A model generated the notes under the pieces. The model searched no databases. It worked only from the letters and a program-made list of their open reading frames with translations, and was not told where the DNA came from. From contig JAGPKU010000001.1 of NCBI GenBank assembly GCA_018053845.1, forward strand, positions 22,252-86,251: 64,000 bases of DNA. The letters run 5' to 3'. Below are positions 2,842 to 59,817 of the stretch, one piece after another; the stretch's first letter is position 1; every line of letters starts with the position of its first letter. The translations under genes and the position numbers were made by a program. The stretch is from Syntrophobacterales bacterium. GTDB taxonomy: Bacteria > Desulfobacterota > Syntrophia > Syntrophales > UBA2192.

Positions 2842-2929
2842 GAGGCAGCAGGTTACAGGTAGCAGGCGGCAGGAAAGAAAAAGCATCCACAGGAGGAACC
2901 TGTCACCTGTCACCTGTCACCTGTCACCT
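2842..2929. repeat. Heptad hairpin element, family A (AGG-phased arm plus perfect (CCTGTCA)x4 arm)
   Basis: The left arm AGGCAGC AGGTTAC AGGTAGC AGGCGGC AGG begins at 2844 within this span. CCTGTCA repeats four times at 2899-2929. The right arm overlaps the GT4 stop codon and last codons (..KVTGDR*). Confidence 0.85.
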
Positions 2930-4142
2930 TCTCGTAGACGTCCTCGATCAGCCGCGCGGCACGCTCCCAGGTGATCGTCTCGAGCTCCTCGCGGCCGCGC
3001 TCGACCATCTCGCGCGCCAAGGCCTCGTAGGTCAGCACCGCGCAGATCTTGCCCGCGAGTTCGTCCACGTCCCAGAAGTCCACCTGCAGGGCGTGGTGGA
3101 GGACCTCGGCGACCCCGGACTGCCTCGAGATGATCACCGGCACATCCGCGCGCATCGCCTCCAGCGGGGCGATCCCGAAAGGCTCGGAAACGCTGGGCAT
3201 GACGTAGAGGTCGCTCAAGGCGTACATCCGCTCCACCTCCTCGCCGCGCAAGAACCCCGTGAAGAGGAACCGGCTTCCCAGGCCGAGTTCGGCCGCGCGC
3301 TCGATCATCCGCGGCATCAGATCGCCGCTGCCCGCCATCACGAACGTGACATCGGGCAGGACGCGAAGGACCTTCGCGGCCGCCTCGACGAAGGCCCCGG
3401 GGCCCTTCTGGTGCGTGATCCGTCCCAGGAACAGGACGATCTTCCCGCCGAACGGTTTCGATTCCCCGGTCGTCCCGGCCGCCTCGCCCCGCGAAACGGC
3501 GTTGTGGACGACGCTGACCTTCCCCGGGTCGATCCCGTAGCGCTCCGCGATCCTGCGCTTCGTGAAGTGGCTCACGGCGATGACGCGGTCCGCCTCGAGG
3601 AGACCCTGCCGCTCGATTGCAGCGATGCGGGCGTCGACGGCGCCGCCGCTGCGGTCGAACTCCAGGGCGTGGACATGCAGGACGAAGGGGCGCCCGCTGA
3701 CGCCGCGGGCGCGAAGGGCCGCCGGCACCGAGAGCCACTCGTGGGCGTGGATGACGTCGAACGGGACCCGCCGGGCGATGAGACCCGCCGCTTCGGCATA
3801 GCGCCCGAGCTCCGAGAACAGATCGGGGCCGTAGGGCCCCGGGCTTGCCAGAAGGCTCTCCCGGAGAAGCCCGTACGCGGGCGGGGCCATGTAGGGCCGC
3901 AGGGGCGACTCGACGGGCCGCACGGCGATCCCCGCAGGGGGCCCGCCCTCGGCTGCGTCGGCGAACCCGGGGGCCGCCATGAGCGACACGTGGGACGGGC
4001 TGCCCGGCTGCGGCAGGAAGGGGACCACGAAGGTGATCCGGTGGCCCCTCTGGGCCAGGGCCTTCGTCATGCCGAAGCACGCCGTCCCGAGACCCCCGCT
4101 GATCACCGGCGGGAATTCCCACCCGAACATCAGGATCCGCAT
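2910..4142 (-). CDS. GT4-family glycosyltransferase (glycogen-synthase-like, group 1)
   Basis: In ORF 2910..4175, the internal start MRILMFGWEFPPVISGGLGTAC (ATG at 4142) is the typical GT4/GT5 N-terminus. The C-terminal half contains PSVSEPFGIAPLEAM (the E-x7-E region). Confidence 0.85.
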   Translation of the reverse strand: MRILMFGWEFPPVISGGLGTACFGMTKALAQRGHRITFVVPFLPQPGSPSHVSLMAAPGFADAAEGGPPAGIAVRPVESPLRPYMAPPAYGLLRESLLASPGPYGPDLFSELGRYAEAAGLIARRVPFDVIHAHEWLSVPAALRARGVSGRPFVLHVHALEFDRSGGAVDARIAAIERQGLLEADRVIAVSHFTKRRIAERYGIDPGKVSVVHNAVSRGEAAGTTGESKPFGGKIVLFLGRITHQKGPGAFVEAAAKVLRVLPDVTFVMAGSGDLMPRMIERAAELGLGSRFLFTGFLRGEEVERMYALSDLYVMPSVSEPFGIAPLEAMRADVPVIISRQSGVAEVLHHALQVDFWDVDELAGKICAVLTYEALAREMVERGREELETITWERAARLIEDVYEKVTGDR

Positions 4143-4223
4143 GGCCTGCGCCCCGCCCTCCCGTTTTCCATCCATTCGATATCCCTATCGGAAAAACCGC
4201 GCGGCGTCAATGCCCCGTTGACG

Positions 4224-4298
4224 AAGGAGCGAGGTTCGAGGCGCGAGGGTCGAGGCCCTTTCTGTATCCTCGGTCCTCGTTCCTCGGACCTTGAACCT
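4224..4298. repeat. Heptad hairpin element, family B
   Basis: AAGGAGCGAGGTTCGAGGCGCGAGGGTCGAGG (4224-4255) faces CCTCGGTCCTCGTTCCTCGGACCTTGAACCT (4268-4298). The right arm is 27/31 identical to 59115-59145. Confidence 0.85.
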
Positions 4299-4310
4299 GC
4301 AAGCCGCCGA

Positions 4311-4326
4311 AGGCCCGATATTTGCA
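4311..4326 (+). promoter_or_regulatory. Sigma-54 (-24/-12) promoter candidate for the small-protein/HDOD/HD-GYP operon
   Basis: AGGCCCGATATTTGCA vs consensus TGGCACG-N4-TTGCA. GG and GC have the correct spacing. 82 nt upstream of ATG 4408. Confidence 0.6.
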
Positions 4327-4407
4327 TGGTGACAGGACGGCTTCCTGCGCCCGACGACCGGGGCAGGCAGGGGCCCTCGGGAAACCACACGGGGGAAGGC
4401 ACCGGCG

Positions 4408-4743
4408 ATGGGTATTCTGAACATCAACGATCTCAAGGAAGGCATGACGCTTGCTGCCGACGTGAAGAACAAGCACGGCAACATCATGATCAAGCAGGGC
4501 ATGACCCTCACCGAGAAGCACATCATGCTCCTGAAGGCCTGGGGCATCCCGGATGCCGACGTGGAGGGCGCCGACCGGGAGCAGCTGCACCAGGAGGAGA
4601 TGAAGACCGTCGCGCCGGAGGTGATCGAGGCTATCGAACGGGAGCTCAGCGGGATCTTTCCGCCCCTCGAGGGCAACGAGCTGATGTCGGAGATCTACCG
4701 CATCTCCAAGAAGATGAAGATCCGGCAGGCCCTGGAGTCGTAG
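4408..4743 (+). CDS. Small (111 aa) protein resembling the N-terminal regulatory module found on HD-GYP proteins
   Basis: MGILNINDLKEGMTLAADVKNKHGNIMIKQGMTLTEKHIMLLKAWGI matches the L.pGM.la.dv....G..l...G..lt...i..L...gi pattern seen N-terminal to many HD-GYP proteins. It is the first gene behind a sigma-54 promoter and has GC3-rich codons. Confidence 0.6.
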   Translation: MGILNINDLKEGMTLAADVKNKHGNIMIKQGMTLTEKHIMLLKAWGIPDADVEGADREQLHQEEMKTVAPEVIEAIERELSGIFPPLEGNELMSEIYRISKKMKIRQALES

Positions 4744-4788
4744 AGACGCCGGCCCGCGGAAACCGCCATCGCAGAGAACCGAGAGACC

Positions 4789-6812: not shown

Positions 6813-6952
6813 AAGGCATCAGGCATTGGGTCTCAAAGGAACAAGAAGATTCCGCATCAGGGAGGAATGACTGCAACAGGAGAGAGGAGCGGGGCTTGAG
6901 TTCCGATCCTCTTTTTTCACTCCTGATGCCTGATGCCTGGTGCCTTATGCCT
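6813..6952. repeat. Heptad hairpin element, family C, filling the convergent HD-GYP/lolA spacer
   Basis: The 13-bp perfect inverted repeat AGGCATCAGGCAT (6814-6826) / ATGCCTGATGCCT (6926-6938) flanks a GGA-rich core. The TGATGCC heptads run up to the lolA stop codon. Confidence 0.85.
6883..6918 (+). terminator. Terminator-like hairpin after the HD-GYP gene
   Basis: AGAGGAGCGG-N10-CCGATCCTCT (one mismatch) followed by TTTTTT. It is embedded in repeat family C. Confidence 0.5.
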
Positions 6953-9199: not shown

Positions 9200-9340
9200 G
9201 ACCGCCCCGGTGATTTCTTCCGGGCTGATCGAGAATGCCCGGACGCAAGGCACCCTCTCATGCAGAGAGTAAGAGGGTTTGAAGGTGAGAAGGTTGGCGA
9301 AGCGGGAAGCAGGAATCCCGCCACCGACTCATCCAACGTT

Positions 9341-9380
9341 CTTACCCTCTCGCCTTCTTGCCTTCTCTGTCAGCGGGATG
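9341..9380. repeat. 3'-flanking repeat with GTCAGCGGGATG core (copy 1, after pdxS stop)
   Basis: CTTACCCTCTCGCCTTCTTGCCTTCTCTGTCAGCGGGATG. 32 of the last 36 positions are identical to copy 2. Confidence 0.75.
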
Positions 9381-9386
9381 CCCCCG

Positions 9387-10271: not shown

Positions 10272-10401
10272 GTAACTCTGTTCCTCCTTGATCAGCGTGC
10301 CCCCTTCTTTATCGGGAGACGACGGTTTTTCTCGAATCACGATTATCGTCTGTGCAGACCGTGCAGTTTCCCAAAGACTGTTCAAACCTTCCCGGATGCA
10401 A

Positions 10402-10441
10402 GGCGCCCTCTCACCTGCTTCCCTTCTCCGTCAGCGGGATG
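10402..10441. repeat. 3'-flanking repeat with GTCAGCGGGATG core (copy 2, after comM stop)
   Basis: GGCGCCCTCTCACCTGCTTCCCTTCTCCGTCAGCGGGATG. Confidence 0.75.
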
Positions 10442-10461
10442 CGCCCCCGGTCGACAGTCCG

Positions 10462-12015: not shown

Positions 12016-12150
12016 TTTTCCTTATGTTCCACTTGGTTGCGCATATTATAACACGATTTGAAATTTGCAAGCACTTTCGGCTTCCGTTTTCTCGAGGCCT
12101 GATGTATGAAGAGCGCCTCGATAACGCACGGGAAGTTATCGAAACCAGAA

Positions 12151-12283
12151 CAGGTCAAGGTGTCCGGTCACAGGAGACAGGTGAGAGAAAAGACACAATG
12201 GGGGCGATCCTGATGTGTGAGCAGACCAGCCGGGGCAAGCGGATCGTCTTCCGCCTGTTGCCTGTCACCTGATACCTGTTGCC
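12151..12283. repeat. Heptad hairpin element, family A, in the comM/murI divergent spacer
   Basis: CAGGTCAAGGTGTCCGGTCACAGGAGACAGGTGAGAG (12151-12187) faces CCTGTTGCCTGTCACCTGATACCTGTTGCC (12254-12283). It shares CCTGTCACCT with the other family A copies. Confidence 0.8.
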
Positions 12284-25532: not shown

Positions 25533-25636
25533 AGAGGACAGGGTCCAGGGTACGAACGACAGGGGATAGGGGACAGGGCAGAAACGACGAGGTTCAGACG
25601 CCAAGGTACAGGGTCCAGGGAAGACAAGGCATAAGA
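25533..25636. repeat. AGG-phased low-complexity tract with 13-nt direct repeat (family E)
   Basis: ACAGGGTCCAGGG at 25538-25550 and 25608-25620, directly after the pyrG stop and before its terminator. Confidence 0.7.
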
Positions 25637-25637: not shown

Positions 25638-25682
25638 AGAGGGCAGGGCCGGAATTCGGCTCTGCCCTCTTCTGCGTTTTTT
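25638..25682 (+). terminator. Rho-independent terminator after pyrG
   Basis: AGAGGGCAG-N15-CTGCCCTCT followed by TCTGCGTTTTTT. Confidence 0.75.
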
Positions 25683-25703
25683 GGTCACGGGCCTGGAAAA
25701 GAC

Positions 25704-25805
25704 GGAAGTCAGGAAGCTGGGAAGTTGTGAAGAGCGGAATGGAAGGTAGAACTTCTTGTCCGCTCTTCCTCACTTCTGCTCTTCCGCTCTTCGCAAGCTT
25801 CCTGT
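25704..25805. repeat. Heptad hairpin element, family D
   Basis: GGAAGTCAGGAAGCTGGGAAGTTGTGAAGAGCGG faces CCGCTCTTCCTCACTTCTGCTCTTCCGCTCTTCGCAAGCTTCC. 25704-25718 is the reverse complement of AGCTTCCTGACTTCC at 47444-47458. It overlaps the 3' end of ORF 25709..26305. Confidence 0.8.
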
Positions 25806-37205: not shown

Positions 37206-37250
37206 CGGAATGCCGGGTGATACCGGTTCGCGTTTGTCGCTGAAAAGCAA

Positions 37251-37282
37251 AAGGGCAGGCTCATCGGGCCTGCCCTTTTTTT
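37251..37282. terminator. Bidirectional Rho-independent terminator between satP-like and PAS-LuxR genes
   Basis: AAGGGCAGGC-tcatcgg-GCCTGCCCTT followed by TTTTTTT on the plus strand. The minus-strand equivalent is followed by TTTTGCTTTT. Confidence 0.8.
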
Positions 37283-37306
37283 CGTCGCGTTCATGGAATC
37301 GTCGCT

Positions 37307-45146: not shown

Positions 45147-46091
45147 ATGGCTGACGGCAAGACCGCCATCGTATTTCCGGGACAGGGTTCCCAGCGACAC
45201 GGGATGGGCAGGGACTTCTACGAGAGCATCCCCGAATGCCGCCGGGTCTACGAGCAGGCCTCCGACGCCCTGGGGTGGGACGTGGCGGCGCTGTGCTTCG
45301 GAGAGGACGAGAGGCTCAACCTGACCGCCTACGCCCAGCCGAGCATCGTGGCGACGGAGATCGCCATGCTGAAGGCCGTCATCGAGAAGTACGGCATCAC
45401 CCCCGACGTGTTCGGCGGGCACAGCCTCGGCGAGTACACGGCCCTGGTGGCCGCGGGCGTGCTGCCGCTCGAGACGGTGCTGCGCATCGTCCACATCCGC
45501 GGCAGCCTCATGCAGGAAGCCGTCCCGGCGGGAGAGGGAGCGATGGCCGCCGTCATCCGCAAGGACCTCAACACCCGGATGATCCGCGAGCTGCTCGCCG
45601 ATCTGCCCATCGACGTGGCGAACATCAACTCGCCCAACCAGATCGTCATCAGCGGCCGCTCCAAGGCCATGCCCGAGGCCGAGGAGCGCCTCGCGAAGGC
45701 CCTGGCCGACGAGAACCCGACGCGGTTCGTGGCCCTCAACGTGAGCGCCCCCTTCCACAGCCGCTTCATGCAAACCATCGAGGAGCCCTTCGAGGGGGAG
45801 CTGGCCTGCGTGCGCAGGCAGATGAAGGCCGAAAACGCCGTAAGGGTGACCTCCAACTTCACGGGCGGCTTCCACTCCCCCGACAGGGAAGAGGTGATCG
45901 AGCGTCTCGTGGCGCAGCTCTCGGGCACCGTCCAGTGGTGCGACAACATGAGGGCCATCGCCTCGCAGGCGGACACCGTCTACGAAATCGGCCCCAACCG
46001 TCCCCTCCGGGACTTCTTCAAAACGATCGGCGTGACCTGCATCTCGCTGACCACACTCTCCTCCGCCGAGAGGACCTTCGCCGGCAACTGA
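45147..46091 (+). CDS. Malonyl-CoA:ACP transacylase-like acyltransferase (FabD-like)
   Basis: ATG 45147 after gaaggaga. Motifs: FPGQGSQ, GHSLGEY (Ser nucleophile), APFHS. Confidence 0.85.
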   Translation: MADGKTAIVFPGQGSQRHGMGRDFYESIPECRRVYEQASDALGWDVAALCFGEDERLNLTAYAQPSIVATEIAMLKAVIEKYGITPDVFGGHSLGEYTALVAAGVLPLETVLRIVHIRGSLMQEAVPAGEGAMAAVIRKDLNTRMIRELLADLPIDVANINSPNQIVISGRSKAMPEAEERLAKALADENPTRFVALNVSAPFHSRFMQTIEEPFEGELACVRRQMKAENAVRVTSNFTGGFHSPDREEVIERLVAQLSGTVQWCDNMRAIASQADTVYEIGPNRPLRDFFKTIGVTCISLTTLSSAERTFAGN

Positions 46092-46152
46092 CCGGGAAGG
46101 CGCCGCCCCCTGCGGGGATCATCCGAACACGCACACACGCAAGGAGAACGCC

Positions 46153-47355
46153 ATGGATTTCCGCCTCAGTGAAGACCAGCAGATGTACGTCGACACGGTC
46201 CGGCGATTCGTGAAAAACGAGATCCTCCCGAACATCCTGCAGATCGACAAGTCGCACGAGTTCCCCTACGGGATCATCGCCAAGGCCTGGGAGCTGGGCA
46301 TCCTCAACCTGAGCGTGCCCAGGGAGGTGAAGGGGTTCGAGATCGACGCCGTCTCCTCGGCCCTCATCATCAAGGAGCTCTCCTACGGCGACACGGGCAT
46401 CTCCACCTCGGCGATGTGCAACGACCTGGCCAACACGGTCATCGCCCAGCACGGCAGCGAGAAGCAGAAGCAGGACTTTCTGGGGCCCTTCGTCCAGGCG
46501 CCCCTGCTGGCCTCGTTCTGCCTCACCGAGCCCGGCGCCGGGTCGGACAACTCCTCCATGAGCACCTTCATCGCCAAGGGCGCCGACGGCCGGTACGTCC
46601 TCAACGGCGCCAAGTGCTTCATCACCAACGCCTCCTACGCCGGCCAGTTCACCGTCTTCTGCAAGGTCGGCAAGCCCACGGCGCAGCTGCTGGCCTGCTG
46701 CATCGTGCCGACGGAGGAGATGTTCCGCGACGGCAGGCCCAACCTGCCCGCGAAGCCCCAGACGGAGCTCACGGCCCGGGGCGGCGGCCGGATCGTCCTC
46801 GGCAAACCCGAGGAAAAGCTCGGCCAGCACCTCTCCAACACGGCCACGGTCACCTTCGAGGACGTGATCGTCGACGAGAGCCAGATCATCGGCGACCGCC
46901 GCCGGGGCTTCAAGTACCTCATCGACGTGCTCGACTACGCCCGGCCCATGGTGGCCGCCATCGGCGTGGGCCTGGCCCGCCGGGCCCTCGACCTGACCCT
47001 GCAGTACACCCGCGAGCGCAAGCAGTTCGGGCAGCGGATCTGCGACATGCCCGTGGCGAGGGAGACGCTCGTCGCCATGTGGAAGAAGGTGGAGCTGGCG
47101 GAGCTGGCCCTCATGAAGGCGGCCGTGAAGGTCCAGGAGCGCGACGAGGACCGCGGGATGTACTCGTCGCTGGCGAAGAACACCGCCGCCGAGGCGGCCC
47201 TGTTCTGTGCCAACGAGGGGCTGCACCTGCACGGCGGCTACGGCTTCATGCAGGAGTACGAGATCTCGAAGCTCGTGCGCGACGCCCACATCATCGACAT
47301 CTACGAAGGCGTGCGCGAGGTGCAGCACATGATCATCGGCAGGGAACTGGTCTAG
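46153..47355 (+). CDS. Acyl-CoA (or acyl-ACP) dehydrogenase family flavoprotein
   Basis: CLTEPGAGSD, FITNA, and IYEGVREVQ (catalytic Glu region). Contains a ~40-aa insertion (PTEEMFRDGRPNLPAKPQTELTARGGGRIVLGKPEEKLG). Confidence 0.88.
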   Translation: MDFRLSEDQQMYVDTVRRFVKNEILPNILQIDKSHEFPYGIIAKAWELGILNLSVPREVKGFEIDAVSSALIIKELSYGDTGISTSAMCNDLANTVIAQHGSEKQKQDFLGPFVQAPLLASFCLTEPGAGSDNSSMSTFIAKGADGRYVLNGAKCFITNASYAGQFTVFCKVGKPTAQLLACCIVPTEEMFRDGRPNLPAKPQTELTARGGGRIVLGKPEEKLGQHLSNTATVTFEDVIVDESQIIGDRRRGFKYLIDVLDYARPMVAAIGVGLARRALDLTLQYTRERKQFGQRICDMPVARETLVAMWKKVELAELALMKAAVKVQERDEDRGMYSSLAKNTAAEAALFCANEGLHLHGGYGFMQEYEISKLVRDAHIIDIYEGVREVQHMIIGRELV

Positions 47356-47398
47356 GCGCGAAGCGCCGGGCGCAGGAGAAAAAAACAGGGTGCGCCCG

Positions 47399-47473
47399 AC
47401 GGAGCGAGGAAGAGCGGAGCACCCCGAATCATTGCGTTATCCGAGCTTCCTGACTTCCCGACTTCCTGGCTTC
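47399..47473. repeat. Heptad hairpin element, family D, in the ACAD/KAS III spacer
   Basis: ACGGAGCGAGGAAGAGCGGAGC faces CCGAGCTTCCTGACTTCCCGACTTCCTGGCTTC. A 17-nt exact match (CCGAGCTTCCTGACTTC) to 52080-52096. Confidence 0.85.
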
Positions 47474-47525
47474 ACGCACGGCCGTCACTGGCTGTCACAA
47501 CAGGCGAAGGATCATCAAGAAGGCA

Positions 47526-48515
47526 ATGCTGTACTTACACGGACTGGGGCACTTCTACCCGGAAAACGTGATCACCAACCGCTTCCTGAGCGACCTGGAC
47601 ATCGGCTCGAGCGAGGAGTGGATCGAGGAGCGCGTGGGGATCCGCGAACGCCGCACGGTGCTGCCCCTGGACTACATCCGGGCCACGAAGAACCGCGACG
47701 TCCGCGCCGCCCAGGAGGCGAGCCTCTACACCAACGGCCGGACGGCGGCGGCCGCCGCCCGCATGGCCCTCGAGCGCGCGGGGCTCGCCGCCGGGGATAT
47801 CGGCATGGTGATCTCCGGCAGCTCGGCCCCCGACGTGGCCTCGCCGGCCGAGGCCTCCACGGTGGCCGCCGAGCTGGGGATCGACGTGCCCGCCTTCGAC
47901 ATGAACTCGGCCTGCACGAGCTTCGCGCTGCAGGTCCATTTCCTCTCGAACCTGAACCCGGGGGCCCTCCCCCCGTACATCCTGATCACGCAGCCCGAGA
48001 ACCTGACGCGCTGCCTCGACTACTCGGATCGCCGCTCGGCATGCCTCTTCGGCGACGGGAGCACCGCCGCCGTCGTGTCGCCGACCGTGCCGTCCGACAA
48101 GGTCCTCGACGCCACGCACTTCGACGCCAAGCCCTCCTGCTGGGACAAGGTGTCGATCCGCCGAACAGGCCACTTCGGCCAGGACGGCAACGCCGTGCAG
48201 GGGTTCGCCATCCGCAAGACCACCGATGCCCTGCGCGTCATCCAGGCGGTCAACCCCTCGCTCAACGGGCACCTGAAGTTCATCGGACACCAGGCCAACC
48301 TCGGCATGCTGAAAACCGTCTGCGAGCGATGCGGGATCGGCCCCGAGAACCACTGGCACAACGTCGAGCTCTTCGGAAACACGGCCACGGCCGGGGCCCC
48401 GGGGTCGCTGAGCCTTCATTGGCGGGATCTCAGGCCCGGCGACCACGTGGCCCTCGTGCAGGTGGGCGCGGGGCTGTCCTGGGGCCACATGATGCTGACG
48501 GTCAAGGAGCGCTGA
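47526..48515 (+). CDS. 3-oxoacyl-ACP synthase III (FabH-like KAS III)
   Basis: NSACTSF (Cys), IGHQANLGM (His-x-x-Asn region), GNTATAG (Asn). Confidence 0.85.
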   Translation: MLYLHGLGHFYPENVITNRFLSDLDIGSSEEWIEERVGIRERRTVLPLDYIRATKNRDVRAAQEASLYTNGRTAAAAARMALERAGLAAGDIGMVISGSSAPDVASPAEASTVAAELGIDVPAFDMNSACTSFALQVHFLSNLNPGALPPYILITQPENLTRCLDYSDRRSACLFGDGSTAAVVSPTVPSDKVLDATHFDAKPSCWDKVSIRRTGHFGQDGNAVQGFAIRKTTDALRVIQAVNPSLNGHLKFIGHQANLGMLKTVCERCGIGPENHWHNVELFGNTATAGAPGSLSLHWRDLRPGDHVALVQVGAGLSWGHMMLTVKER

Positions 48516-49114
48516 TGACCTACCGGGAATTCATGGACAGGGACCATTTCGATCTGACGGAGATCCTCGCGATCGTCTACGGCAACCTCGTTTCCGATGC
48601 GCCCCAGGGCATGGACGCGAAGCTGCCCGCGCCGCCGCTTCTCATGGTCGACCGGATCCTCTCCATCACGAAGGACAACCGCCACGGGGCGATCGTGGCC
48701 GAGCAGGACGTCCGGCTCGACGCCTGGTACTTCCAGTGCCACCTGCCGGGCGACCCGGTCCAGCCGGGCTGCCTCTGCGTGGACGCCGTCTGGCAGCTTT
48801 TGGGCTTCTACTGCCTCTGGCGCGGGGCCCTGGGAACCGGCAGGGCCCTGGGCTGCGGCGAGGTCTTCTTCAGCGGCCAGATCCGGCCCTACAACAGGGT
48901 GGTGCGCCATGAAATCGCCGTCAAGCGCTTCCAGCACCTGAAAGACTCCGGGGCCAGCATCGTCATCGCCGACGCGAACATCCTCGTCGACGGCGATCTC
49001 ATCATGACCGTGAAGGACGCCCGCACGGGTGTCTTCCACGGGATCGCCTACCCGGACTACCCCCACAAATCCAAAAACGCCGTCGGCGGCATCATGATGA
49101 AGGAGAAGCCATGA
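48515..49114 (+). CDS. FabA-like 3-hydroxyacyl-ACP dehydratase/isomerase
   Basis: ATG 48515 overlaps the KAS III stop (TGATG). LPAPPLLMVDRI, WYFQCHLPGDPVQPGCLCVDAVWQL (FabA His and Asp), GEVFFSGQIRP. Confidence 0.85.
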   Translation: MTYREFMDRDHFDLTEILAIVYGNLVSDAPQGMDAKLPAPPLLMVDRILSITKDNRHGAIVAEQDVRLDAWYFQCHLPGDPVQPGCLCVDAVWQLLGFYCLWRGALGTGRALGCGEVFFSGQIRPYNRVVRHEIAVKRFQHLKDSGASIVIADANILVDGDLIMTVKDARTGVFHGIAYPDYPHKSKNAVGGIMMKEKP

Positions 49115-49839
49115 GCGACAAACCGGTTGCCATCGTGACGGGAAGCGGCACGGGGATCGGCGCGGCCTGCGCGCGGGCCCTGGCGAAGGAAGGCTTCCGC
49201 GTGGGGCTGCACTACCGCAAGAGCGCCGGGGGCGCCACGTCCCTCCAGGCGGAGCTGGGCGACGCCTTCCTGCTGCAGGCCGACCTGGCCGAGATCGACC
49301 AGGTGGAGGCCCTGGTGAACCGGATCAGGGAAGAGGCCGGTCGCGCCGACGTCCTCGTCAACAACGCGGGCCTCTCCATCAACGCCGACATCAACGCCAT
49401 GAAGGTGGAGCAGTTCGACGAGCAGCGGGCCCTCACGAGGGGGATCTGGTATCTCACGAAACGGGTGCTTCGCCAGTTCATGCTTCGGAAGGGGAGCGGA
49501 CGGATCATCAACATCTCGAGCGTCGTGGGGCACACGGGAAACGCGGGGCAGATCCCCTACACGATGGAGAAGGCGGCCCTCGATGTCTTCACGAAGTCGC
49601 TCTGCCGGGAGCTGGCGGGACGCAACATCCTCGTCAACTCCGTGGCGCCGGGATTCATCGACACGGAGATGACGGCGGTGCTGCCCGGGGAGATCCGGGA
49701 GCGGCTCCTGGCCGGCGTGCCGCTGGGCCGCATGGGCAGGCCGGAGGAAGTGGCCGAGGCGGTGGCCTTTCTCGCGACGAAGGGATCCTACATCACGGGA
49801 ACCGTCATCCACGTCAACGGGGGGCTCTATGGCGGCTGA
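49111..49839 (+). CDS. 3-oxoacyl-ACP reductase (FabG-like SDR)
   Basis: TGSGTGIG, NNAG, S...YxxxK (IPYTMEKAA), PGFIDT. ATGA overlap with the FabA-like gene. Confidence 0.9.
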   Translation: MSDKPVAIVTGSGTGIGAACARALAKEGFRVGLHYRKSAGGATSLQAELGDAFLLQADLAEIDQVEALVNRIREEAGRADVLVNNAGLSINADINAMKVEQFDEQRALTRGIWYLTKRVLRQFMLRKGSGRIINISSVVGHTGNAGQIPYTMEKAALDVFTKSLCRELAGRNILVNSVAPGFIDTEMTAVLPGEIRERLLAGVPLGRMGRPEEVAEAVAFLATKGSYITGTVIHVNGGLYGG

Positions 49840-50302
49840 TCGCGAAACACGGCAGAAGGTCCTGGCGGCGGTTCCGCAGCAGGCCCCCTTCCGCTTCGTC
49901 GACGAGATCCTGGAGCTGGACACGGAGCACGTCGTCGGCGCCTATCGGTTCCGGGAGGACGAATGGTTCTACCGGGGGCACTTTCCCGGCCATCCCGTCA
50001 CGCCGGGGGTCATTCTCGTGGAGGCCATGGCGCAGACGGGCGTCGTCGCCTTCGGTCTCTACCTCGTCATGGCGCAGGGCCGGGAGGAAGAGCTCAAGAG
50101 AGGCAACCTGACGACGCTTTTCACGGTCATCGAGGCCATGGAGTTCACGGGCATGGTGGTGCCGGGTGAGCGCGTCATCATCCGGGGGGAAAAGGTCTAT
50201 TTCCGCAAGGGCAGCCTCAAGGCGAAGGTCAGCATGGAGAGGGAGAACGGGGAGCCCGTCGCCTCGGGCGTGCTGGCCGGCATGGGAGTCAACCTGCAAT
50301 GA
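49829..50302 (+). CDS. FabZ-like hotdog-fold 3-hydroxyacyl-ACP dehydratase
   Basis: PFRFVDEILE, FYRGHFPGHPVTPGVILVEAMAQ (FabZ His/Glu). 11-nt overlap with the FabG-like gene. Confidence 0.8.
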   Translation: MAADRETRQKVLAAVPQQAPFRFVDEILELDTEHVVGAYRFREDEWFYRGHFPGHPVTPGVILVEAMAQTGVVAFGLYLVMAQGREEELKRGNLTTLFTVIEAMEFTGMVVPGERVIIRGEKVYFRKGSLKAKVSMERENGEPVASGVLAGMGVNLQ

Positions 50303-51576
50303 GAACGAGGATCGTGATCACGGGTCTGGGGATCATGGCCCCCAACGGCCATGGCCTTGCCGAGTACGAGGCGGCCCTGCGGGAGGGGCGGTCGGGCATC
50401 CGCTTCATCCCGCGGCTCAAGGAGCTGGGGTTCGCCTGCCAGGTGGGCGGCGTCCCGCAGGGATTCGACGATCTCTGCCGGCGGTACTTCGACGCCGAGG
50501 ACATGCTCTCGGTCAACGACAACATCGGCTATGCCTGCATCGCCGCGATCGACGCGTGGCGCGACGCGGGCTTCACCGTGCCGAAGCCGGACAGCACGGA
50601 GGTGGACTGGGACACGGGGGCCATCATGGGCTCGGGGATCGGCGGCATGGACACGATCGCCGGACAGGTCGTCCCGAAGGTCAACGAGCACCAGATCCGG
50701 CGCCTGGGCAGCACCGTCGTCCAGATGGTCATGAACAGCTCCACGAGCGCCAAGATCGCCGGAATGCTGGCCCTGGGAAACCAGGTGACATCCAACTCGT
50801 CGGCCTGCAGCACCGGCAACGAGGCCATCATCGACGCCATGCTGCGAATCCGAAACGGGCTGGCGAAGCGGATGATCGCGGGGGGCTCCGAGGGGTCCTC
50901 ACCCTACATCTGGGCGGGGTTCGACGCCATGCGGGTGCTTTGCCGGAAGTTCAACGACGCCCCCGACAGGGCCTCGCGGCCCATGAGTGCGACGGCTGCG
51001 GGCTTCGTGCCCGGCTCCGGCGCCGGCGCCCTGGTCCTCGAGGACCTCGAGACGGCGCAACGGCGAGGGGCGAAGATCTACGCCGAGCTGCTCGGCGGGG
51101 CCGTCAACTGCGGCGGGCACCGCAACGGCGGCTCCATGACGGCACCCAACCCCGAAAGCGTCCGGCGCTGCATCCGCGCGGCCGCGGCCGACGCGGGGAT
51201 CTCGCCGGCCGATGTGGACGCCGTCAACGGTCACCTGACGGCCACCTTCGCCGACCCCTACGAGGTGAAGAACTGGGCCGCGGCCCTCGAGCGCTCTCCG
51301 GCGAACTTCCCCTGGATCAACTCGACCAAGTCGCTCGTGGGGCACTGCCTGGGCGGCGCCGGGGCCGTCGAGTCCGTGGGCGTCGTGCTGCAGCTCCACA
51401 GGGGGTTCATCCACCCCTCGGCCAACTGCGAAGACGTCCACCCCGAGATCTCGGCCTTCGCCCCGCGCATCCCGCAGTCGGCAATCGAGGACCCCGGGGT
51501 GAAGATCATCGCCAAGGCCGGCTTCGGCTTCGGCGACGTGAACAGCTGTATGATATTCAAACGATGGGACGGCTGA
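50299..51576 (+). CDS. 3-oxoacyl-ACP synthase I/II (FabB/FabF-like)
   Basis: MRTRIVITGLG, SSACSTG (Cys), NGHLTAT (His), LVGHCLGGAGAVE (His). ATGA overlap with the FabZ-like gene. Confidence 0.9.
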   Translation: MRTRIVITGLGIMAPNGHGLAEYEAALREGRSGIRFIPRLKELGFACQVGGVPQGFDDLCRRYFDAEDMLSVNDNIGYACIAAIDAWRDAGFTVPKPDSTEVDWDTGAIMGSGIGGMDTIAGQVVPKVNEHQIRRLGSTVVQMVMNSSTSAKIAGMLALGNQVTSNSSACSTGNEAIIDAMLRIRNGLAKRMIAGGSEGSSPYIWAGFDAMRVLCRKFNDAPDRASRPMSATAAGFVPGSGAGALVLEDLETAQRRGAKIYAELLGGAVNCGGHRNGGSMTAPNPESVRRCIRAAAADAGISPADVDAVNGHLTATFADPYEVKNWAAALERSPANFPWINSTKSLVGHCLGGAGAVESVGVVLQLHRGFIHPSANCEDVHPEISAFAPRIPQSAIEDPGVKIIAKAGFGFGDVNSCMIFKRWDG

Positions 51577-51707
51577 GGGCTTAAGGCAAAAGGCTTAAGG
51601 CAAAAACAAAGTACAAAACGGCGTGAGGCGTAAGGCATAAGGCGCAGGGCAAAGGAAGGAAACATTCTTCGTAGTTGCCTTAAGCCATGAGCCCTAAGCC
51701 CTGAGCC
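51571..51707. repeat. Heptad hairpin element, family C, in the KAS/ACP spacer
   Basis: GGCTGAGGGCTTAAGGCAAAAGGCTTAAGGCAAAAAC...TGAGGCGTAAGGCATAAGGCGCAGGGCAAAGG faces TTGCCTTAAGCCATGAGCCCTAAGCCCTGAGCC. It begins inside the KAS stop codon. Confidence 0.85.
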
Positions 51708-51729
51708 AATCACCGCAAAGGAGTGTGAA

Positions 51730-51978
51730 ATGGACGAGAAGAAGATTTTCCAGGAGCTGTGCAACATCCTCAAGCTGTACACGAAGAACCCCGAGCTTCT
51801 CGACACGGCGACCAAGGAAACCCATATCCTCAACGACCTGAAGGTCAACTCCGCGCGCCTCGTGGACGTGGTCATCAAGTGCGAGGACGTCTTCGGCATC
51901 TCCATCGACGACGACGAGGCGGACAAGATCCGCACCATCGGCGACGCCGTCGAGATCATCTTGAAGAAAGCGGCGTAG
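51730..51978 (+). CDS. Acyl carrier protein (dedicated)
   Basis: 82 aa, acidic. DLKVNSARLVDVV aligns with the ACP DSL phosphopantetheine-Ser helix II motif. Confidence 0.8.
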   Translation: MDEKKIFQELCNILKLYTKNPELLDTATKETHILNDLKVNSARLVDVVIKCEDVFGISIDDDEADKIRTIGDAVEIILKKAA

Positions 51979-52008
51979 CCTGTTGACCGGGGCCCATCCC
52001 GCGTGGAT

Positions 52009-52122
52009 GCGGAAGCTTGGAGGTTGGGAAGGGGTGAAGCTTGGAGAGGCCGAAAGCCCATCTCACGGTTTCCGCTTTTCCGAGCTTCCTGACTTCATCG
52101 CTTCGTAACCTCTGCCTTCTCT
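52009..52122. repeat. Heptad hairpin element, family D, in the ACP/acyltransferase spacer
   Basis: GCGGAAGCTTGGAGGTTGGGAAGGGGTGAAGCTTGGAGAGG faces CCGCTTTTCCGAGCTTCCTGACTTCATCGCTTCGTAACCTCTGCCTTCTC. Confidence 0.8.
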
Positions 52123-52334
52123 ACAGGCGCGTTGCATCCAGGCACTTTCGAAGAGACTGGGAAGAGGCGGGAACCGGTATCGGGGTCGGGTCAAGAAAGC
52201 GCGGGCAGTCAGTAAGCCATTCCCGATTGCCGCGAAGCGGCATGGCTCACCTTCTGAACTTCTCGCCTTTCCAACTTCGCCGGGTCAGGGGCATCGGCGA
52301 GGTTGGGGGAGAAAAAGCGCGGGCAGAACGGAAC

Positions 52335-53156
52335 ATGAACCAGAGCAATCAGAGGTGGCTGGCGGTTCAGGATGTGCTGAGCCGCCTGGCCGCCTTCCTC
52401 TATATCCCCCTCGTCGCCGTCGTCATCCGGCTGATGGGCTATCGGTTCCGGGACCTGAAGGCCTTCCGGCATCGGTGCCTGGAGGCGATGCGCAGCCACA
52501 ACGGGGGATGGCTCGTCTGCGCAAACCACCTGACGCTCGTTGACTCGGCCTTCATCGCCTATGCCATGCTGCCGCCCTGGCGCTACCTGTTCCGTTACCG
52601 TTGGCTCCCCTGGAACCTCCCGGAGCGGCGCAACTTCAACCGCAACCCCCTCGACACGACCGTCTGCTACCTGACGAAGTGCATCCCCGTCACGCGGGGC
52701 GGCGATCGCGAGGAGGTGAGGCGGACGCTCGAGAAGTGCGATCACCTGCTGAACACGGGGCATACGATCCTGGTGTTCCCCGAGGGCGGCCGCTCCCGGA
52801 CGGGACGGATCGACACGGAGAATTTCGCCTACGGCGTCGGCCGGTTCGTGAAAAACCTCGGCCGGTTGAAGATCCTGTGCATTTACTTCAGAGGTGATTG
52901 TCAGGCGACGTGGAGCTCTGTCCCGAGACCGGGCGACACCTTCACCATGGCCGCCGAGGTCTTCGAACCGGAGGGTGTCGCGTACAACGGTCTCAAGGCC
53001 CAGAGGGACTATGCCGGGCAGATCATCCGGCAGCTGGCCCGGATGGAGGAGAGGTACTTTGAGAGTAGGCAACGACATCGTGGATTTGACGGACCCCAAC
53101 AACAGGGGAAAGAGCAGGGACTCCCGGTACGTCAGCCGGGTGTTCACCCCGGCTGA
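52335..53156 (+). CDS. Lysophospholipid/1-acyl-glycerol-3-phosphate acyltransferase family (PlsC-like, HX4D)
   Basis: ATG 52335. CANHLTLVDS (HX4D) and VFPEGGRSRTG (FPEGTRS block). The 3' 98 nt overlap the next gene. Confidence 0.8.
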   Translation: MNQSNQRWLAVQDVLSRLAAFLYIPLVAVVIRLMGYRFRDLKAFRHRCLEAMRSHNGGWLVCANHLTLVDSAFIAYAMLPPWRYLFRYRWLPWNLPERRNFNRNPLDTTVCYLTKCIPVTRGGDREEVRRTLEKCDHLLNTGHTILVFPEGGRSRTGRIDTENFAYGVGRFVKNLGRLKILCIYFRGDCQATWSSVPRPGDTFTMAAEVFEPEGVAYNGLKAQRDYAGQIIRQLARMEERYFESRQRHRGFDGPQQQGKEQGLPVRQPGVHPG

Positions 53157-53793
53157 GCGGAAGCGGATCGAGAGCTTCCCGGAACCCGACGTGCTGCTCT
53201 GGTCGCTATGGGCCGGCAAAGAGGCCGCCTTCAAGGTGCTCGCGAAGAAGGACCCGGCCCTGCCCTTCGTCCCCCGAAATTACGAGGTGCACCTGGATGA
53301 ATACGGACTCCGGGGGACCTCGACGGACGCGGGGACCTGCAACCCCCACGTCGAGGGTGCCGTGCGGACCCCCGAGGGGACGGTTCCCCTGCGGACCTAC
53401 AGGCGCTGCACCTACATCCACGCCCTTGCCCTGTCAGAGGGCGAGGAGTGCTTCGACTACGTCTTCTGGCGGGTGGAAGTTCTGCCCGAGCTGAAGGGCG
53501 TCGACTCCCTCGAGGTGGAATCGCGCATCGTCCGCGAAGCCCTCAAACGCTGCGTGGCCACGCACCTGGGATGGAACCGGAAGGAGATGGAGATCCGGCG
53601 CACCGAGTCGGGCGGCCGTCCCGGCCCGCCCCGCCTGTACTACCAGGGCAAGCGCACCACCCTGGATCTGAGCCTCAGCCACGACGGCCACTTCGGGGCC
53701 TATGCCGTGCTGATGCCCAGTCCCGACGACAGGCCGCCGAAGTCCGATCATCCGGACCTTACCTGCCAGGCGGAGGACGCAGCCCTGCGGTGA
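53059..53793 (+). CDS. 4'-phosphopantetheinyl transferase
   Basis: TTG 53059, 4 nt after ggaggagagg, gives (M)RVGNDIVDL. WAGKEAAFK is the W..KEA..K motif. An alternative ATG lies at 53011. Confidence 0.7.
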   Translation: MRVGNDIVDLTDPNNRGKSRDSRYVSRVFTPAERKRIESFPEPDVLLWSLWAGKEAAFKVLAKKDPALPFVPRNYEVHLDEYGLRGTSTDAGTCNPHVEGAVRTPEGTVPLRTYRRCTYIHALALSEGEECFDYVFWRVEVLPELKGVDSLEVESRIVREALKRCVATHLGWNRKEMEIRRTESGGRPGPPRLYYQGKRTTLDLSLSHDGHFGAYAVLMPSPDDRPPKSDHPDLTCQAEDAALR

Positions 53794-53831
53794 TGCCGCC
53801 GGCCGGCTCGGCAACGGCGGCGCGGGAGGGC

Positions 53832-57013: not shown

Positions 57014-57030
57014 TGGCGACTGTCCTCAGT

Positions 57031-57113
57031 GGCAAAGGGCCGTTTTGTATTTTGCTTTTCGCCTTGAGCCCGTTTCGTTTTGCCCTTAGCCTCATGCCTT
57101 TAGCCTTTAGCCT
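57031..57113. repeat. Family C element filling the birA/bioY spacer
   Basis: The reverse complement of 57039-57070 (GGCTCAAGGCGAAAAGCAAAATACAAAACGGC) aligns to 51592-51623 with 3 mismatches and 1 gap. The TAGCCTT heptads overlap the birA stop and last codons. Confidence 0.8.
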
Positions 57114-58256: not shown

Positions 58257-58288
58257 TCCCGACTCATGAAAGAAAACGGAGGTCACCC

Positions 58289-58420
58289 ATGGGAAGCCAC
58301 AAGAAGCACGAGAGGAAGAAGGAACTGCAGCGAAAGCGCAAGCGCCGGGAGAAGAGGCAGAAGCTGATCGCCAAGGGCCTCAACCCCGACGAGAGCAACA
58401 AGATCCGGAAGATGGCCTGA
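58289..58420 (+). CDS. Small highly basic protein (43 aa), hypothetical
   Basis: Too short for the ORF track. ggagg lies 5-9 nt before ATG 58289. Translates MGSHKKHERKKELQRKRKRREKRQKLIAKGLNPDESNKIRKMA. A TTGCCC-N17-TATGAT promoter lies at 58228-58256. Confidence 0.45.
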   Translation: MGSHKKHERKKELQRKRKRREKRQKLIAKGLNPDESNKIRKMA

Positions 58421-58455
58421 TCGACCCCCCGCCGACTCAGGGCCGGCGCCCCTTT

Positions 58456-59052
58456 TCACGGCGGTGTCGGCACTGCCTGCAAGAGCATGATCACCCCCTT
58501 GCGGACCATCATGACGGCGATGGCCGCAAGGAGGATTCCCGCAAGCTTCGACAGGGTCCGCGAGCCGGAGCGGCCCAGGATCCGGTGAATGGGCTCGGAG
58601 AGCCAGAACACGGCGCCGGCGATCCCGATGTTGACCACCGTGGCCGCCACGGTGGGCACGATGCCGTACTCGCCCACCAGGACGAAGATCGTCGTCAGCA
58701 CCGCCGGCCCCACGATCAGCGGCACCCCGATGGGGACGGCGCCGAGGCTGTCGGCGTCCACCTGGGCGACCCTCTTCTCCACGGCGATCACGTCGCTCAG
58801 CGAGATCGTGAAGAGCAGGATCCCCCCGGCGATCAGAAAATCCGCGACGGTGATCCCCAGGTAGTGGAAGACCCACTGCCCCACGGCGAGAAACGCCAGG
58901 GCCACGGCGAGCGCCGTGACCATGGACTGGACGATGACCCGCCGGACCACCCGGGGCTCGACCCCTTCGGTCAGGTGCATGAACAGCGGCAGGATGCCCA
59001 CGGCATCGACGGCGACGAACATGGGGAAGAAGCAGAGCCAGAAGGCTTCCAT
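58456..59052 (-). CDS. marC: MarC family (UPF0056) integral membrane protein
   Basis: FFPMFVAVDAVGILPLF..., six hydrophobic segments, GAVPIGVPLIVGPA. Confidence 0.8.
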   Translation of the reverse strand: MEAFWLCFFPMFVAVDAVGILPLFMHLTEGVEPRVVRRVIVQSMVTALAVALAFLAVGQWVFHYLGITVADFLIAGGILLFTISLSDVIAVEKRVAQVDADSLGAVPIGVPLIVGPAVLTTIFVLVGEYGIVPTVAATVVNIGIAGAVFWLSEPIHRILGRSGSRTLSKLAGILLAAIAVMMVRKGVIMLLQAVPTPP

Positions 59053-59090
59053 CGTTCCAACGCTCTCAGAGGTTGACCGCCTTCAGGGCC

Positions 59091-59145
59091 GAGACGCGAG
59101 GTTCGAGGATTTGTCCTCGGTCCTCATGCCCCGGACCTCGAACCT
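59091..59145. repeat. Heptad hairpin element, family B, in the wrbA/marC spacer
   Basis: GAGACGCGAGGTTCGAGGAT faces CCTCGGTCCTCATGCCCCGGACCTCGAACCT. It ends one nt before the wrbA stop codon. Confidence 0.85.
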
Positions 59146-59757
59146 TTATTTCGCCAGCTTGGCGGCGATCCGGGCCACGTGCCTCCCCTGCCAGCGGGCG
59201 GCGGCCAGCTCGTTTTCGCTGGGCATGCGTTCGCCCTTCCCGCCCGCGATCGTCGAGGCGCCGTAGGGCGAGCCGCCGGAGATCTCGTCGATCCGCATCT
59301 GCCCCGCAAAGGCGTAGGGCAGCCCGACGACGACCATCCCGTGGTGGAGCAGGTTGATGTGGAAGCTCAGGATCGTCGACTCCTGGCCGCCGTGCTGGGT
59401 GGCCGAGCTCGTGAAGACGCTGCCCACCTTCCCCGCCAGCGACCCCTTCGCCCAGAGCCCGCCCGTGGCGTCGAGGAACTGCCGCATCTGGCCGCACATG
59501 TTGCCGAACCGGGTCGGGGTGCCGAAGATCACGGCATCGGCCCCGGCCAGCTCGTCGACCGTGCAGACCGGGATGTGGGCCATGGACTTCTGGGCCTCGA
59601 GGGCGCCCATCTTCGCGAGGACGTCCTCCGGGAGCGTCTCGGGGACCCGGCGCAGCACCGCGTCCGCACCGGGAACCTCCTTCACCCCTTCGGCGATCGC
59701 CTGGGCCATTTTATAGGTGTGGCCGTACATGGAATAGAAGACGACGAGCACTTTCAT
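59146..59757 (-). CDS. wrbA: NAD(P)H:quinone oxidoreductase, WrbA-type flavodoxin-like
   Basis: ATG 59757. [38 protein letters not shown]. Confidence 0.9.
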
Positions 59758-59798
59758 GGTTTTTCTCCTTTCGTCGAAAGAACGGGCTGACGGCACAA

Positions 59799-59817
59799 GG
59801 CTGAGGGCTTACGGCAA
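59799..59817. repeat. Family C fragment
   Basis: GGCTGAGGGCTTACGGCAA is 18/19 identical to 51571-51589. Confidence 0.7.

Follow-up and report, generated by a model that had tools for sequence, protein, structure and literature searches.

Convergent pairs of heptameric and octameric repeat arrays in the intergenic spacers of a Syntrophales bacterium

Introduction

The over-representation of heptamers in bacterial intergenic spacers has been known since 1990 and 2007 and has never been explained. Here we consider a dense set of such repeats in a 64,000-nucleotide stretch of a Syntrophobacterales bacterium (GenBank assembly GCA_018053845.1, contig JAGPKU010000001.1, positions 22,252 to 86,251 of the forward strand), referred to below as the window. 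With 66% GC and about 16 elements in 64 kb, this chromosomal stretch extends the known carriers to a high-GC lineage of the Desulfobacterota. We propose, as an even call on the evidence set out below, that the elements are intergenic heptameric or octameric microsatellites in convergent pairs, dispersed hairpin repeats resembling REP (repetitive extragenic palindromic) sequences and MITEs (miniature inverted-repeat transposable elements), and that they would be made and renewed at the DNA level.

The closest described repeats are those of Xanthomonas, where Rehm et al. (2015) counted 186 and 183 GGGAATC heptamer arrays, mostly of four units, in two genomes (PMC4692102). These arrays are 89-93% intergenic and lie on average 28 nt from the upstream open reading frame (ORF) and 160 nt from the downstream ORF; each genome has 70-75 convergent array pairs, with one array per strand, that are capable of forming a stem-loop (PMC4692102). 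Heptamer length and sequence differ between close species, no function was found, and the focus of the paper is G-quadruplex formation by the GGGAATC and GGGGA(C/T)T heptamers of Xanthomonas and Nostoc (PMC4692102). The window elements share with them the tandem 7-nt units, the intergenic location, the convergent pairs with the G-rich arm first and the position nearer the upstream ORF. In contrast to the Xanthomonas arrays, their core is AGG, with two Gs, so that a G-quadruplex is not expected, and several unrelated heptad families occur together with period-8 families in one genome, that of a Syntrophales host with 66% GC.

In Geobacter metallireducens, Aklujkar et al. (2009) described paired sites on opposite strands with variable spacing, assigned to classes 1-3 (PMC2700814, Figs S3-S5). 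The sites consist of 3-5 tandem units of 7-9 nt (GTTGCTYN, TCTCCGTS[Y] and MTYCTGA), with 8-24 pairs per class; class 3 is made of five MTYCTGA heptads, and the authors guessed, without a test, that a global regulator of the IHF/HU type binds there (PMC2700814, suppl. Fig. S5). The window elements are likewise paired 3-5-unit arrays with purine-first polarity in a Desulfobacterota host, and the CTCCTGA-type units of G. metallireducens resemble both the CTCCTGA/TGCCTGA units of one window element (E3, below) and the octad CTTCCTGA of our family D. Our families A, B and C, however, are unlike the G. metallireducens consensus units (MTYCTGA, GTTGCTYN, TCTCCGTS), and the density here, about 16 elements per 64 kb, extrapolates to several hundred per genome.

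More distant parallels are the cyanobacterial STRR (short tandemly repeated repetitive) heptanucleotide repeats (Mazel et al., 1990) and the heptamer over-representation in bacteria (Mrazek, 2007), both as cited in PMC4692102, and the TAACTGA repeats of Beggiatoaceae, which lie just upstream of start codons (MacGregor, 2015; PMC4679880). Modest effects of heptamer repeats on reporters, with no mechanism, are described in a Nostoc preprint. Like the window elements, the STRR and TAACTGA repeats are intergenic tandem heptamers with many copies per genome; unlike them, they have mostly been described as direct arrays, often long (up to 19-43 units), and adjacent arms are often non-complementary. 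REP sequences, their composites the BIMEs (bacterial interspersed mosaic elements) and MITEs are also dispersed intergenic imperfect palindromes lying directly past stop codons and in operons, in lineage-specific families of strain-variable presence and composition, with a stem-loop expected in the mRNA. Of the MITE hallmarks, which are terminal inverted repeats, a target-site duplication and insertion polymorphism, inverted arms and presence/absence polymorphism were observed, whereas no duplication was recognisable at E4, E13 or E14 (listed below). The window elements differ from these in their arms of tandem 7/8-nt units, with no target-site duplication found, no conserved GTAG head and no known partner of the RAYT (REP-associated tyrosine transposase) type. 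Alignment of the elements with their flanks gave no conserved tetranucleotide at the element bases corresponding to the REP 5' GT(A/G)G head, and no RAYT (TnpA-REP) gene was present among the proteins scanned in the 64-kb window.

The original prediction, made from the letters of the window, knew of no described repeat class with this architecture. The same architecture has been published for Xanthomonas (PMC4692102) and G. metallireducens (PMC2700814), and the elements belong to this known class of intergenic heptamer-repeat pairs and are not a new one. What is new here is a polarity rule (69:0), the abutment on stop codons, dispersal at non-orthologous sites, gain and loss between species about 90% identical, alleles at the strain level and the lack of a sense-strand preference. 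The instance is ordinary for its class; it is the polarity across phyla and the strain-level replacement of whole cassettes that sharpen an old question, and the rules described below lend themselves to tests in carriers that are in culture, Xanthomonas, Geobacter metallireducens and Anabaena among them.

Elements in the window

Genes were mapped with a codon log-likelihood model, by which 88.7% of the window is coding and 11% non-coding. When 28-nt segments were compared with their own sequence at a given shift, 30 segments reached at least 22/28 matches at a shift of 7, and shifts of 4-6 and 8-12 gave none; the period-7 autocorrelation check proposed earlier, run here within the window, thus gives a signal confined to period 7. 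Runs of at least four CCT or AGG at a fixed period number eight at period 7 and zero or one at the other periods from 5 to 11, against a mean of 0.02 in local shuffles. Tandem Repeats Finder (TRF) called nine arrays of period 7 (at 2898, 4267, 6922, 12253, 25558, 28793, 51583/51620/51677 and 57078), four of period 8, two of period 9 and one of period 6, and each of the 12 non-redundant period-7/8 arrays is either in a spacer or overlaps the final codons of an ORF call, as would be expected of repeats made and renewed at the DNA level where they are tolerated. Reading every spacer of the window yielded about 16 elements, ten of them paired. We conclude that the heptad/octad hairpin feature is real and statistically strong.

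The arms are tandem arrays of 3-5 units (rarely up to 13), each unit 7 or 8 nt long. The 5' arm carries a purine core (AGG, GGAAG) and the 3' arm the complementary core, and the complementarity of the arms is sufficient for an imperfect stem of 25-70 bp. The elements are listed here as E1 to E15, with E5 split in two; z denotes the fold score relative to shuffled sequence, obtained for 11 elements.

E1, 2842-2929: family A pair in the spacer between a GT4 glycosyltransferase gene (minus strand) and a GH57 gene (minus strand); 5' arm AGGCAGC AGGTTAC AGGTAGC AGGCGGC AGGAAAG, A-rich loop, 3' arm (CCTGTCA)x4.6; the GT4 stop codon (2910-2912) lies inside the array; minimum free energy -42.4, z -5.1.
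E2, 4225-4298: family B pair of 5+5 heptads, CGAGGNN ... CCTCGNN, in a divergent spacer; z -4.6.
E3, 6813-6952: pair, AGGCATC ... CCTGATG x4.4, spanning the gap between two convergent stop codons and enclosing a canonical hairpin with T-tract at about 6876-6915; z -4.9.
E4, 12150-12283: family A-like pair in a divergent spacer, with arms ACAGGNN ... CCTGTTG CCTGTCA CCTGATA CCTGTTG that end ~10 nt before the ATG of a racemase gene; z -2.8.
E5a, 25540-25630, plus strand: single arm of about 13 CAGGGNN heptads, beginning 9 nt past the pyrG stop codon and followed by a canonical terminator at 25638-25685.
E5b, 25700-25800: family D period-8 pair, GGAAGTCA GGAAGCTG ... TCCGCTCT x4.2; z -3.8/-5.5.
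E6, 28793-28826, minus strand: family A single arm, (CCTGTTA)x4.9 on the plus strand and hence AGGTAAC repeats in the mRNA sense, occupying the 63-nt purQ-ADH spacer.
E7, 47395-47473: family D, period 8, with a weak 5' arm and CTTCCTGA x3.5, in an acyl-CoA dehydrogenase/KASIII spacer; z 0.2.
E8, 51571-51707: complex family C pair, AGGCNNN arrays (4 + 5 units) against GCCCTAA x4.4, read by TRF as a G-type and then a C-type array; the KAS stop codon (51574-51576) lies within the first heptad; z -6.2/-7.6.
E9, 52041-52104: family D period-8 pair, GGAAGCTT GGAGGTTG ... CCGAGCTT CCTGACTT; z -4.1.
E10, 57031-57113, minus strand: essentially a single arm in the birA/bioY spacer, in the mRNA sense AGGCTAA AGGCTAA AGGCATG AGGCTAA GGGCAAA etc., with the birA stop codon within a heptad; z about 0.
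E11, 59096-59145: family B pair, its 5' arm truncated to 2 units and its 3' arm of 5 units, beginning directly past the stop codon of a flavodoxin-like gene (minus strand); z -2.4/-2.7.
E12, 59799-59820: short fragment of family C, GCTGAGGGCTTACGGCAA, matching the start of E8 at 18/19 positions.
E13, 9246-9386: period-8 pair, GAAGGTGA-type ... TTCTTGCC, abutting the stop codon of pdxS (minus strand); z -5.3.
E14, 10398-10452: short single-arm relative of E13, 10 nt from the stop codon of a YifB-like gene (minus strand).
E15, 61060-61085: weak family C-like fragment, GAGGCAAAGGGCTTACGG, spotted by reading the spacers and without statistical support.

The earlier claim that each locus can fold into a long hairpin does not hold throughout. 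Nine of the 11 elements folded form a long imperfect hairpin (z -2.4 to -7.6), but E7 and E10 do no better than shuffled sequence (z about 0) and six loci have a single arm, which cannot form such a hairpin alone (25540-25630, 28793-28826, 57031-57113, 59799-59820, 10398-10452 and 61060-61085). Nor is the 7-nt period strict: family D (47441-47473, 25700-25800 and 52041-52104), E13 at 9246-9386 and E14 at 10398-10452 have period 8, in all four to five elements of the window. The statement that the sites lie almost exclusively at gene 3' ends or between co-directional genes describes most of them, but E2 and E4 stand between divergent genes, and the frequency per spacer in the window is about the same for co-directional, convergent and divergent spacers.

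The four sequence families originally proposed stand. BLAST between elements links families A (E1-E6-E4), C (E8-E12) and D (E5b-E7-E9). In family B, E2 and E11 are identical at 27/31 positions and their other arm matches too. The family D 17-mer occurs unchanged at 47441 and 52080 and, in reverse complement with one mismatch, at 25705; it gives four matches against 0.34 expected. E13 and E14, which have both termini in common, form an additional family.

Some units contain a stop triplet (AGGTGAC, GGCTGAG/TAAGGCA and AGGCTAA, at 2899-2929, 51571-51600 and 57078-57113), and the genes GT4, KAS and birA naturally end at stops of this kind. As 7 and 3 have no common factor, a heptad with a stop triplet places stops in all three frames within 21 nt. 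We rejected three-frame stop supply as a general explanation of the repeats, since it holds for families A and C and not for family B, family D or other lineages.

Next to E2, at 4303-4327 and directly downstream, lies a sigma-54-type promoter motif (AGGCCCGATATTTGCAT; GG and GC 12 nt apart), upstream of a 111-aa ORF at 4408-4743 that has no Pfam match; the motif is kept in a relative about 90% identical (L127, below). E5b overlaps ~95 nt of the 3' end of an ORF called on the minus strand (25709-26254/26305). This ORF (25709-26305, 181-198 aa) has no Pfam match and a weak coding score (log-likelihood 22), and its end or the whole call may be wrong.

Polarity of the paired arrays

In each of the ten window pairs the G-rich arm comes first. 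This polarity extends well beyond the window. A scan of one genome per species with (CCTGTYA)x3-CCT returned at least 120 loci, and among the matches listed are Nostocales (many loci), Gemmatimonadota, Acidobacteriota, Planctomycetota, Syntrophales, other Desulfobacterota, Chromatiales, Flavobacteriales and Cloacimonadota. Of 125 CCT-oriented arrays among the matches listed, 28 are preceded within 150 nt by three or more phased AGG heptads, and none is followed by such a run. We also ran TRF on 2.0 Mb of DNA fetched around loci drawn from many phyla, in which 435/472 arrays are intergenic; neighbouring intergenic arrays no more than 200 nt apart follow the order G-type to C-type in 69 cases and C-type to G-type in none. 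At loci picked regardless of repeats, period 7 is the commonest (27 arrays), with 12, 10 and 5 arrays at periods 8, 9 and 6. The published Xanthomonas and Geobacter pairs share the G-rich or purine-first polarity, and it holds in cyanobacterial loci, some of whose pairs keep it with non-complementary arms. We rejected the idea that the polarity is a plain property of intergenic hairpins, since the general bias in such hairpins is only weak.

Two canonical intrinsic terminators of the window, at 25638-25685 (AGAGGGCAGGGCCGG...CCGGCTCTGCCCTCT then T6) and about 37250-37290 (AAAGGGCAGGC...GCCTGCCCTTTTTTT), have a G-rich 5' arm and a C-rich 3' arm, which is also the polarity of the heptad pairs. 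In the purQ-purL spacer of another Syntrophales genome (SMAG_U14909, L207:7060-7183) we observed an AT-rich pair of period 7-8, with units TAAGTAAT TAAGTAAC TGAGTAAT TGGTAAT ... CCAATTACC ... CCAGTTAC; here purine-first polarity is kept and the AGG/CCT core is absent.

Placement within the spacer follows a rule as well. Between co-directional genes, the median distance of the pairs is 5-6 nt from the preceding stop codon and 26-34 nt from the following start codon, values that apply to minus-strand pairs in both GC classes and to high-GC plus-strand pairs; plus-strand pairs of the low-GC class give a less clear picture, at 40 nt from the stop and 56 nt from the start. The pairs in effect fill whatever part of the spacer is unconstrained, between the preceding stop codon and a point ~30 nt short of the following start codon, an arrangement that agrees with a DNA-level origin in which selection mainly filters position. 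Arrays that TRF reports as single are G-type at the left and C-type at the right spacer edge, and since these edges follow the geometry of the pairs, many of them probably have a degenerate partner, as E1 does.

These regularities are also what an adaptive RNA structure might produce. In this alternative, which we find doubtful, the elements would be bidirectional transcript-boundary hairpins, serving as terminators or attenuators independent of a U-tract or as barriers to 3'-5' exonucleases, and their polarity would follow because a pyrimidine-rich 3' arm gives a weak RNA:DNA hybrid while a C-poor 5' arm exposes no Rho-loading site before the stem. The start of the pairs a few nucleotides past the stop codon in both gene orientations fits, as do the strongly negative folds, the enrichment of convergent spacers in low-GC genomes and the depletion of divergent spacers in both GC classes. 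The arms of E3 extend a canonical terminator, and terminator-like hairpins in the same data share the purine-first bias in weaker form. However, elements also occupy divergent promoter spacers, and a boundary hairpin does not account for the cyanobacterial pairs that keep their polarity with arms that cannot pair.

Replacement of elements between genomes

Several metagenome assemblies from JGI, ENA and NCBI contain DNA of the window at 99.3-99.98% identity, and these strains record changes in the repeats. Among strains at least 99.3% identical, one (L002) carries an exact one-unit (7-nt) deletion in E6 and another (L001) a single homogenising T>C substitution in E5a; slippage, as the loss of one heptad in one strain demonstrates, also acts on the arrays. 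In ten strains 99.7-99.98% identical, E7, E8, E9, E11 and E12 are invariant, and E10, in the birA-bioY spacer, has three alleles made from different heptads. The flanks of these alleles are near-identical (over 99.6% overall), and one allele consists of the heptad family that L127 has at E2. Replacement of one cassette by another between strains is among the observations that favour a DNA-level origin.

The E10 alleles (57031-57113; L217:11170-11360; L218:11170-11258) alter the last birA codons and the first ~10 bioY codons, so that repeat turnover rewrites the protein termini of birA and bioY. More generally, elements of this kind corrupt ORF ends and start and stop calls in annotation, with stops inside arrays and birA and bioY termini that depend on the allele.

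Comparison with two other species extends this picture. L127 is a relative 89-94% identical (about 90%) and L128 a more distant one. In L127, E1 and E3 are at the same sites and of the same families, with other units and copy numbers, and the inner terminator at the E3 site is also present; E2 is replaced by a complementary GCAAGG/CCTTGC heptad pair, the element being 39% identical and the flanks 72-82%. At the E1 site, L128 has a different pair, GGGTATC/CCCGATA. All of these variants keep strong hairpin potential. E4 (about 150 nt), E13 and E14 are missing from the orthologous L127 spacers, a presence/absence variation that the comparison of orthologous spacers called for earlier has now confirmed. 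Within the window, E14 equals E13 minus a 92-nt segment (the 5' arm and loop) bounded by the direct repeat RCCCTCTCR. Each of these replacements, losses and gains is in keeping with renewal at the DNA level.

Elements also recur at unrelated sites. Family B is found, with arms and loop near-identical, in the unrelated guaA-pyrG spacer of another Syntrophales species (L207) and also in L052. A delta-proteobacterial locus (L076) from a metagenome-assembled genome (MAG) has elements resembling families C and D, an E5b-like one among them, and several MAGs contain family A elements whose A-rich loop is the same. A 79% match over the whole of E1 (L095) was rejected as a sign of conservation; its flanks are non-orthologous, hence it represents dispersal. 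At distant GT4-GH57 homologous loci the genes lie 10-30 nt apart with no element, and we therefore regard E1 as a lineage-specific insertion into a compact operon. The earlier view that the elements are copied or dispersed units, and not products of slippage alone, is upheld by the family B copy at the non-orthologous L207 spacer and by the absence of E4, E13 and E14 from L127.

A model for element formation

Any explanation must satisfy absolute polarity, stop-flush placement, arms of 4-5 units, strain-level cassette turnover and the lack of a sense-strand bias. We suggest that the elements are made and renewed at the DNA level. Slipped-strand mispairing would generate the units and homogenise them within an arm; fold-back or quasi-palindrome template switching, or a putative mobilising activity, would copy one arm to the other and seed new sites; and selection would act mainly as a filter on where elements are tolerated.

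Several observations weigh against this model, the polarity being the main point that it leaves unexplained. The 69:0 order of the arms is not predicted by slippage plus template switching, so that an absolute polarity needs either a polar mechanism or selection, and ordinary intergenic hairpins in the same data have a weak bias in the same direction (55% purine-rich 5' arms vs 29-38%). The spacer of E1 has kept a heptad hairpin in three species, and those of E2 and E3 in two, and arms preferentially have 4-5 units; both observations could point to selection for a function. Divergent spacers hold about half as many arrays per spacer as the other classes, a shortage that fits a 3'-end role as well as a promoter constraint. 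On the mechanistic side, no target-site duplication is recognisable at E4, E13 or E14, and no conserved target at the insertion junctions.

The polarity could come from selection, either for the weak RNA:DNA hybrid of a pyrimidine-rich 3' arm or against a naked C-rich, Rho-loading arm. It could also come from a polar DNA process. A conserved process of this kind, writing 7-8-nt arrays into bacterial spacers, is conceivable in view of the 69:0 polarity, the cassette swaps at unchanged flanks and the absence of an RNA strand preference, and we consider it very unlikely. It might consist of reiterative 3'-end or fold-back synthesis at breaks made at hairpins, which would leave a head-to-head layout of G- and C-strands like that of a telomere-telomere fusion; alternatively, selection might favour a Chi-like, RecA-loading polarity facing a central break.

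Transcription and possible functions

Under the DNA-level model, transcription of the elements in either direction would yield a purine-arm-first stem-loop right past the stop codon. By analogy with REP sequences, the most likely physiological effect would be that of an intercistronic or 3' structural barrier, with partial attenuation of read-through or protection from exonucleases, and a dedicated protein-binding or translational signal is less likely.

The roles put forward in the original prediction can be examined against this background. A terminator scan flagged only the inner hairpin of E3 and a small, weak apex hairpin of E1, and the 3' arms of most elements are not followed by T-tracts. 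The birA-bioY, GT4-GH57 and KAS-ACP-acyltransferase operons contain elements, and the distance to the next gene is too short to fit a promoter; transcription must therefore read through them. A general role as terminators is thus not borne out.

The same evidence bears on transcript-boundary hairpins of any kind. Most elements have no T-tracts, and full termination is implausible for the many that lie in operons ~30 nt from the next start. If the RNA were selected, G:U pairs should favour the sense strand, but no such preference is seen. Of the 11 window elements folded, eight are more stable as the plus strand, irrespective of gene direction; of 46 co-directional pairs, 18 are more stable as sense and 27 as antisense RNA (Wilcoxon p = 0.16), as expected if renewal takes place in DNA. 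With no G:U-based sense bias either in the window or in the 46 pairs, we rejected RNA-level selection on the sense strand, none being detectable. E1, moreover, is missing from most homologous operons. The retention of a heptad hairpin at one junction in three species, despite a complete change of sequence, remains a point in favour of a boundary role.

Arrays of this form could alternatively be read as double-stranded DNA. The omega repressor of pSM19035, a ribbon-helix-helix protein, occupies heptad operators and MetJ occupies tandem 8-bp metboxes, with one protein dimer per 7- or 8-bp unit in direct and convergent orientation. By analogy, an oligomerising protein might bind one unit per 7-8 bp and use inverted arrays to bridge or loop the DNA. 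This fits a conserved AGG/CCT phase beside four positions that vary between families, a polarity kept even with non-complementary arms, the usual 4-5 units per array and the lack of a preferred RNA strand; E2 lies just upstream of the sigma-54-type promoter motif, and an IHF/HU-type protein has been proposed by Aklujkar et al. (PMC2700814). On the other hand, the omega and MetJ operators are promoter sites with one conserved unit, whereas the units here differ by locus and most elements lie past stop codons in operons, away from promoters. The many unrelated heptads within a genome, and others again in other phyla, all with one polarity, argue against a single sequence-specific protein, and the replacement of alleles at constant flanks is hard to square with a conserved operator. 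We consider such a protein unlikely.

A role in translation or RNA-protein recognition seems to us highly improbable, the slimmest of the chances that we weighed. Here AGG would act as a Shine-Dalgarno-like or CsrA motif and CCU as an anti-Shine-Dalgarno sequence, or a ring protein of the HutP/TRAP type would read NAG-N4; the HutP site, UAG-N4 repeated three times, has a 7-nt period. AGGUGA (family A), GAGG (family B) and AAGG (family C) do resemble Shine-Dalgarno sequences, and the strong single arms E5a, E6, E10 and E14 are AGG-type in the mRNA sense directly past stop codons. In the sense strand, single arrays are G-type in 67 cases and C-type in 38. We rejected the single arrays as proof of an mRNA-sense function: the excess is weak evidence, as their positions follow pair geometry and it is explained by pairs with one degenerate arm. 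Period-8 families exist besides. The AGG motifs of the pairs are base-paired within stems and not exposed in loops, and Rfam gave no match at the gathering score and no relevant match at E <= 1, including types such as CsrB, RsmY and RsmZ, so that the suggested CsrA decoy finds no backing. Sequestration of the anti-Shine-Dalgarno sequence, also suggested earlier, is not general, since other lineages use heptads unlike the Shine-Dalgarno sequence (GGGAATC, AATTGGT, ATTTTGG and ACTGGGG; for GGGAATC, PMC4692102). We also rejected a G-quadruplex: most units have only GG, and GGG or GGGG occurs only in E5a.

Other features of the window

The PyrG protein of the window is identical to MBP8694856.1, from an uncultured Syntrophobacterales/Syntrophales MAG. 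Housekeeping genes include glmM, guaA, pyrG, purL/purQ, pdxS, birA-bioY and the GT4-GH57 glycogen pair, alongside an RND efflux pump, sigma-54 regulators and a fatty-acid or aryl-polyene-like cluster; a tRNA/tmRNA scan of the window found none.

The gene cluster resembling the aryl-polyene type, at about 45200-53800, contains E7, E8 and E9. It encodes a FabD-like acyltransferase, acyl-CoA dehydrogenase, KASIII, two FabA-like dehydratases with ApeI/ApeP-like Pfam matches on strain contigs, a ketoreductase, KAS, an 82-aa ACP-like protein, an acyltransferase and a phosphopantetheinyl transferase.

The 642-nt spacer between divergent genes at 36057-36698 contains, at about 36341-36382, a perfect 14-bp inverted repeat, GGTTGTGCAGGATG ... 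CATCCTGCACAACC. This repeat is not built of heptads and may serve as a regulator site or form a hairpin in RNA.

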